DNA of 64,000 bases from Escherichia coli. GTDB lineage: Bacteria; Pseudomonadota; Gammaproteobacteria; Enterobacterales; Enterobacteriaceae. The notes beneath the pieces are model-generated. The model saw nothing but the letters and a program-made list of their open reading frames with translations, searched no databases and was not told the origin of the DNA. The DNA lies in the NCBI RefSeq assembly GCF_044647545.1, contig NZ_CP172818.1, one strand, 5' to 3'. Below, in pieces: positions 25,409 through 25,436 of this stretch (its first letter is position 1; each line of letters starts with the position of its first letter). Position numbers and translations under genes: made by a program.

Positions 25409-25436
25409 GCCCGCTTGGCATAGCGGGCATTTTTTC
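25409..25436 (+). terminator. Orphan intrinsic-terminator-like hairpin
   Basis: GCCCGCT-TGGCAT-AGCGGGC stem followed by ATTTTTTCC; no plus-strand gene upstream. Confidence 0.4.

Follow-up and report, generated by a model that had tools for sequence, protein, structure and literature searches.

What does a transcription terminator end when every gene for several kilobases upstream of it runs the other way? Here, we describe the analysis of such a hairpin, located in the AT-rich spacer beside the tRNA gene ileY of Escherichia coli, in a window of 64,000 nucleotides (the whole stretch of DNA that was analysed, to which all positions refer). An earlier note on this DNA had proposed that the hairpin is the 3' end of a small RNA (sRNA) or of a small-ORF transcript. 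The hairpin closes a 70-nt block that is nearly invariant in E. coli and Escherichia albertii, and we give roughly even weight, from comparison of sequences, to the proposal that positions 25368-25435 (+) are an unannotated, independently transcribed sRNA gene of ~68 nt with its own promoter and intrinsic terminator. The candidate gene and ileY would be convergent, with the former 186 bp downstream of the latter. E. coli K-12 has, to our knowledge, the most thoroughly mapped bacterial transcriptome, and this block of its spacer, with tRNA-level conservation and gene-like boundaries, carries no annotation.

The terminator hairpin and its surroundings

The hairpin lies in the 756-bp spacer between ypjCB, present as two minus-strand ORFs (23427-24284 and 24365-24865; 285 and 166 aa), and ileY (tRNA-Ile(CAU), anticodon CAT; 25622-25697, minus strand; ARAGORN and Rfam), which is convergent with the hairpin element. 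Beyond ileY lies an intact ygaQ (26254-28506, plus strand). The analysed spacer is 100% identical to that of ST648-type strains. The matching RefSeq record marks ypjCB as frameshifted; several other strains have it intact, and in K-12 it is split into ypjB and ypjC. Directly after the ygaQ stop codon stands another hairpin (28517-28544, plus strand; 11 bp, 7 G-C pairs, T-poor tail), the strongest terminator-like hairpin of the region and presumably the ygaQ terminator. All genes upstream of the spacer hairpin, as far as a large autotransporter ORF (17924-22621; ypjA in the RefSeq annotation of a 100%-identical strain), lie on the minus strand, and the closest sizeable plus-strand ORFs upstream end at 16645 and 17559. 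The earlier description of an AT-rich spacer next to ileY with plus-strand genes more than 7 kb away is therefore accurate: G+C content is 30-41%, and no such gene occurs within ~7.8 kb upstream of the hairpin. In MG1655 the hairpin corresponds to 2,785,548-2,785,569 (+) and the 70-nt core to 2,785,508-2,785,577 (offset 2,760,140). No RNA gene is annotated at the element in RefSeq E. coli genomes, one of which has a hypothetical CDS over the match.

The hairpin and T-tract noted at 25409-25436 (+) are real, and we place the same object at 25408-25435 (+), where the sequence reads TGCCCGCT-TGGCAT-AGCGGGCA-TTTTTT, followed by CC. The hairpin (25408-25429) has an 8-bp stem (25408-25415 paired with 25422-25429) with 6 G-C pairs and a 6-nt loop (25416-25421). 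The tail after the stem, TTTTTTCC (25430-25437, plus strand), comprises a T6 tract at 25430-25435 and the two C residues that form the right edge of the invariant block, interspecies divergence beginning at 25438. It thus has the parts of an intrinsic terminator, namely a G+C-rich stem of 5-14 bp, a loop of 3-8 nt and a U-tract directly 3' of the stem, the U-tract being short at 6 U. Folded as RNA, the hairpin reaches -15.9 kcal/mol, compared with -9.6 +/- 2.2 for shuffled sequences (z = -2.9; 2 of 200 shuffles equal it). Read on the minus strand, the stem runs into AAATTGCT instead of a U-tract, and the terminator would therefore act on plus-strand transcripts only. An ileY trailer or bidirectional terminator was rejected, the tRNA strand having no U-tract, and so was a decayed tRNA or att remnant, since ARAGORN and Rfam find only ileY. 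Across 11 kb, 14 terminator-like sites were counted against 9.7 +/- 3.1 in shuffles; at this near-chance density the hairpin by itself is weak evidence. What stands above chance is the joint conservation of the hairpin and the 40 nt preceding it.

The stem is invariant save for G25425A, which produces a C.A mismatch at pair 25412-25425. This substitution, the K-12 allele (MG1655 2,785,565), weakens the hairpin from -15.9 to -9.7 kcal/mol (z = -0.6, no better than shuffles). About two-thirds of carrier genomes have it, among them some but not all O157:H7 strains, and it occurs on at least four haplotype backgrounds. Since the change is so widespread, an intact stem is not strictly required; from its distribution, G25425A could be either a mutational hotspot or a tolerated, or even favoured, weakening of the hairpin. 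A de novo G-to-A change at 2,785,563 (window 25423), in the 3' arm of the hairpin and two bases from G25425A, arose during laboratory evolution under gallium (PMC6928379), and the hairpin may be a mutational hotspot.

Conservation and distribution of the 70-nt core

Eleven diverse RefSeq spacers of E. coli were aligned and then supplemented with 10 IMG/VR loci and 72 metagenome loci, and E. albertii loci were found through their match to a 41-aa ORF (see below). The final set holds 90 E. coli sequences (36 haplotypes) and 5 E. albertii-like sequences. The search anchor fixed 20 of the 70 core bases (25386-25405); the search left the remaining 50 free to vary, and none did so.

Variation across the spacer is sharply partitioned. 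Within E. coli, 7 of 43 positions vary in 25312-25354, where the two species differ at 35%; the octamer ATGATAAT (25355-25362) is invariant within E. coli and between species; and the next five positions (25363-25367) include one that varies in E. coli and four that differ in E. albertii. The core (25368-25437, 70 nt) has one variable position in E. coli, G25425A, and one difference from E. albertii, T25416C, which falls in the hairpin loop and is the sole interspecies difference in the core. Past the terminator, 25438-25520 varies at 8 of 83 positions in E. coli (pi = 0.0075) and diverges by 16% from E. albertii, and 25521-25620 varies at 19 of 100 positions and differs by ~76%, being essentially unalignable. 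The core has the lowest within-E. coli diversity of the whole spacer and is conserved above the intergenic background (P ~1e-4 or lower), the binomial probability of one or no difference in these 70 nt at flanking rates being 9e-5 to 2e-7. Its first 40 nt, GGCUUUAUCGUUAAUUACUUAAUUCCACAUGUAAGCAAUUU (25368-25407, plus strand), the predicted sRNA body, show no variable position in the 90 E. coli sequences and no difference from E. albertii; this segment is weakly structured, its minimum-free-energy structure having a low ensemble frequency, and is a candidate base-pairing region.

Between the same two species, ileY differs at 3 of 76 positions, and YgaQ shares only 59% protein identity. Judged by these alignments, the core is conserved between E. 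coli and E. albertii at the level of a tRNA gene. ileY is itself polymorphic in E. coli, with 5-6 variable positions. A second low-diversity island is seen in E. coli at 25200-25239 (pi 0.008); it has no E. albertii counterpart and overlaps a minus-strand mini-ORF (MKCLCHALNIYY) with AAGGA before it.

The core was found in 3087 of 5426 complete RefSeq genomes, always as a single copy. Among these carriers 1039 matches are exact and 2048 fall in the 95-99% identity band; of the latter, those listed differ at one base, which was G25425A in every case retrieved. The entire ileY-ygaQ locus is missing from about 43% of E. coli genomes (~2,300/5,426), NU14 and a BL21 derivative among them. In these non-carriers the query aligns through its tRNA segment alone, apparently to a second tRNA-Ile(CAU) gene at another location. 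In E. albertii the element adjoins ileY as it does in E. coli, and its other neighbour is ykgO/ykgM/ykgR, not ypjCB, so the element travels with ileY. One E. albertii locus (L014) carries an island with a P4-type integrase inside the ileY anticodon loop, which leaves the 3' half of ileY beside the conserved element. Insertion sequences disrupt the spacer in strains 27992, BE2-5 and 14EC007; the insertions seen are an IS3 inside the hairpin at ~25410, an IS3 at ~25140, and two IS1 that replace ileY through gabT.

The element had no match in 50,697 phage records. A plasmid or mobile origin was rejected, the sole plasmid matches being mislabelled chromosomes and the element being single copy in every genome. 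A wider scan of genome contigs yielded no further carrier, just one K-12-like contaminant contig; all sequences recovered from metagenomes and IMG/VR were of E. coli or E. albertii type; and YgaQ homologues outside Escherichia have neither ileY nor the hairpin nearby. With two carrier species only, a recent transfer of a short tract is conceivable.

A further reading is that nothing here is functional. The hairpin could have arisen by chance, with its conservation due to a recent sweep, a gene-conversion tract or hitch-hiking with ileY, which would suit the near-chance density of terminator-like hairpins locally, the restriction to two closely related species, the accessory and recombining nature of the locus with G25425A spread across haplotypes, and the missing transcript end in the portions of the K-12 data sets searched (see below). 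Both flanks and the tRNA, however, show normal or high divergence, and a conversion tract would need to coincide with the -10 box, the discriminator and the terminator edge. We regard this explanation as improbable.

Promoter-like segment, inverted repeat and reading frames

Upstream of the core, the invariant ATGATAAT (25355-25362, plus strand) contains a candidate -10 box, GATAAT (25357-25362), that is the same in both species. It is followed by a gap of 5-6 nt, in which bases vary, and then by the start of the invariant block at 25368, whose right end lies two bases past the T-tract. These core boundaries, a -10-like box, five variable nucleotides and an invariant block that runs to the T-tract, look like those of a gene. 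The candidate -35 box (25333-25339, plus strand) is a weak match, ATTAAA/TTAAAT in E. coli and ATTACA in E. albertii. A promoter consensus scan independently calls ATTACA-18-GATAAT (9/12) at the homologous site of E. albertii, at a suitable distance from the terminator downstream, and the E. coli equivalent, ATTAAA-18-GATAAT, scores 8/12, a weak match. A second -10 box at 25347-25352 (plus strand) reads TATAAT in K-12-type alleles and CATGAT in the window, with TTAACC 16 nt upstream; E. albertii has TACAAA there, so TATAAT would be an E. coli-specific alternative, with a start at ~25359. Diversity in E. coli is highest at 25340-25359, flanked on either side by a low-diversity block, as expected if this stretch is a promoter spacer.

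In genomic SELEX, sigma-70 holoenzyme and H-NS bind this spacer in vitro (Shimada et al.; PMC3946193). The promoter-like sequence that those authors picked in silico (TTATCA-18-TTTAAT; PMC3946193) lies on the minus strand of the window, at 25333-25361, and thus marks the same AT-rich segment in the opposite direction. The segment is indeed equally good as a minus-strand promoter (TTATCA-17-TTTAAT, the spacing also being given as 18). For ypjC there is a better-placed promoter site at 24949 to 24922, and a conserved product lies downstream in the rightward direction only.

The promoter-like segment is flanked by the arms of an 18-bp AU-rich inverted repeat (left arm 25312-25329, partner 25377-25395, plus strand), which raises the prospect of a longer plus-strand RNA of ~125 nt or more. 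Such an RNA would start upstream of 25312 and fold into two hairpins, a 5' domain formed by the repeat (25312-25329/25377-25395) and the terminator at the 3' end, with the promoter-like boxes in an apical loop. Across the alignment, 95% of cells in the repeat are paired. Comparing both species, there are two one-sided changes, with pairs kept as G.U on the plus strand. The two-hairpin fold is more stable than shuffles in E. coli (z = -3.3) and E. albertii (z = -4.3), with 0 of 200 shuffles as good; interspecies differences in the left arm preserve A-U or G.U pairing on the plus strand only; and clear interspecies homology starts at the foot of the 18-bp stem. Against these points, no conserved promoter was found upstream, where an indel of roughly 9-13 nt between the species makes the candidate boxes differ in spacing. 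Apical folds vary among alleles, yet certain apical segments keep their sequence, and, since the structure came from these same sequences, the slide control for the repeat may be inflated. Nor does any pair covary on both sides, the sequences having diverged too little for double-sided covariation. We consider the longer RNA doubtful.

Open reading frames were weighed on both strands. On the plus strand, a small ORF was rejected: mini-ORFs upstream change frame and length between species, and the core has just an ATG-TAA. With no conserved ORF on the predicted transcript, it would be noncoding, as an sRNA is. Of the two kinds of transcript suggested at the outset, then, the sRNA gains from the conserved 70-nt block and the -10-like box, and the small ORF fails because the mini-ORFs are not conserved.

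On the minus strand, a 41-codon ORF (MRAGVLVRGTPLQCIYPSVLIQKYLEKMPAMPSGQIAYMWN; 25386-25511) spans the hairpin, with its ATG at 25511 and AGGTGG 6 nt before it. The conserved hairpin might then be incidental coding sequence for a 41-aa small protein translated from ileY read-through. The frame is open, with ATG and stop, in both species and is annotated as a 41-aa hypothetical protein in E. albertii; G25425A and T25416C are both synonymous in it, as are 2 of 3 changes in O55/O157. As a conserved protein, however, it was rejected: between species its first 25 codons hold 9 nonsynonymous and 1 synonymous changes, a dN/dS >1 by hand estimate. The invariant block also overruns its stop by 18 nt and ends mid-ORF. 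No Pfam or NCBIfam match was found for the peptide, and no coordinate of the form 27855xx/27856xx and no such peptide appears in the accessible part of the Stringer 2021 supplement on K-12 sORFs from ribosome profiling. A 74-codon form of the ORF was rejected since it has no start codon in K-12. The available portion of the Adams 2021 Term-seq supplement places the 3' end of ileY itself at MG1655 2785762 (-) and a bicyclomycin-sensitive (Rho-dependent) site at 2785734 (-), window ~25594, 28 nt downstream of ileY. ileY read-through would thus normally be halted before it reaches the conserved element, and as far as these data go Rho action right after the tRNA stands against translation of the 41-aa ORF. 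Such a protein is a highly improbable account of the element.

Transcript evidence, interpretation and known systems

A plus-strand transcript that ends near 25436 had been anticipated. The accessible K-12 tables do not contain one: the Adams 2021 Term-seq supplement, in the part available, has no plus-strand 3' end near MG1655 2,785,575, and the TRS 2023 supplements, of which the part consulted may cover K-12 incompletely, contain no coordinate that starts with 27855. A mapped RNA 3' end at the U-tract is thus missing from both K-12 data sets to that extent. The expectation is left partly standing, for K-12 carries the weak-hairpin allele at an H-NS-bound locus; given the weakened hairpin and the in vitro H-NS binding, the missing K-12 3' end is not decisive. 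ileY and ypjC are absent from the portions of the CLASH supplements searched. In Rfam 15 only the tRNA passes, the other best matches scoring 12-21 bits against thresholds of 41-81; the subthreshold matches to RprA (21.5 bits vs 70) and STnc560 (15.8 vs 55) both appear to rest on the terminator. A search for base-pairing targets gave only chance-level 10-mers in the 64-kb window, and duplexes with the ygaQ, ypjCB and ileY leaders were no better than shuffles. The literature search did not find the element sequence in print, nor anything relevant on an sRNA with ileY, ypjC or ygaQ.

The element could instead work at the nucleotide level with no RNA of its own, as an insulating terminator or as an operator or protein-binding region based on the 18-bp inverted repeat. 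The insulator would block stray plus-strand transcription from the H-NS-silenced ypjA-ypjCB island before it enters ileY antisense. Its terminator does face the 3' end of ileY, and the element is kept with ileY in E. albertii too, with ykgM-ykgO transcribed towards it there. Beyond the terminator by 45-100 nt lies a patch (25480-25539, plus strand) that is rich in C (40%) and poor in G (15%); this C-rich, G-poor composition 3' of the terminator suits the insulator, and the patch is possibly a Rho loading site for plus-strand read-through that would serve as backup. In addition, the inverted repeat brackets the AT-rich segment, H-NS and RNA polymerase bind the spacer in vitro (PMC3946193), and the K-12 transcript end is absent from both 3'-end supplements, so far as these were accessible. 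An insulator, however, needs the hairpin and T-tract only, which leaves the 40 nt upstream, the -10-like box and the sharp edge at 25368 unexplained, and the common G25425A weakens the very part that it requires. This reading seems to us unlikely.

If the element is an sRNA gene, sigma-70 RNA polymerase would start at about G25368/9 from the weak AT-rich promoter (-35 ATTAAA/ATTACA, -10 GATAAT), and in K-12-type alleles the second box, TATAAT, would give a start ~9 nt earlier. Transcription would stop at the hairpin and U6. Base pairing with targets in trans could then fall to the unstructured, AU-rich first 40 nt, and the terminator with the preceding AAUUU resembles an Hfq-binding module. 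H-NS would hold the promoter quiet in laboratory culture. A broader and rather unlikely extension is that the ~68-nt sRNA, the rare-codon tRNA-Ile(CAU) and ygaQ form one accessory module common to both species, in which the sRNA, kept as strictly as the tRNA, is held silent by H-NS in the laboratory but is induced by host or stress conditions, tuning AT-rich acquired genes or AUA decoding by ileY. If expressed, the candidate would be an sRNA missed by standard K-12 work because K-12 combines a damaged terminator allele with an H-NS-bound locus, and a regulatory RNA tied to an accessory rare-codon tRNA that is absent from 43% of E. coli genomes. Should there be no expression, this strong noncoding conservation calls for another explanation.

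Several known systems resemble parts of this arrangement. The island-encoded Isr RNAs of Salmonella, InvR, and Esr41 of EHEC are Hfq-type trans-acting sRNAs in horizontally acquired DNA. Like them, the candidate is ~70 nt, has a candidate promoter of its own, lies between genes in AT-rich, H-NS-bound accessory DNA, combines an unstructured 5' part with a GC-rich terminator hairpin and U-tract, and is conserved above the surrounding island; unlike them, it is known from sequence alone, belongs to no Rfam family and has a U-tract of just 6 U. 3'ETS-leuZ is a functional RNA derived from a tRNA 3' trailer. The candidate shares with it a position directly downstream of a tRNA gene and an end at an intrinsic terminator, but lies on the strand opposite ileY and so cannot be the ileY trailer, and the ileY 3' end and the Rho-dependent site map elsewhere. 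TxpA/RatA and BsrG/SR4 are type I toxin-antitoxin pairs with convergent 3' overlap. As in these pairs, the 3' half of the candidate is antisense to the 3' end of a small opposite-strand ORF, whereas the 41-aa peptide is not hydrophobic or membrane-like, is not conserved and has no family match; a promoter of its own was looked for and not found. Finally, the candidate resembles orphan or insulating terminators between convergent genes in having a plus-strand-only terminator that faces the 3' end of ileY, and differs from them in that here forty upstream bases and a promoter-like box are conserved too.
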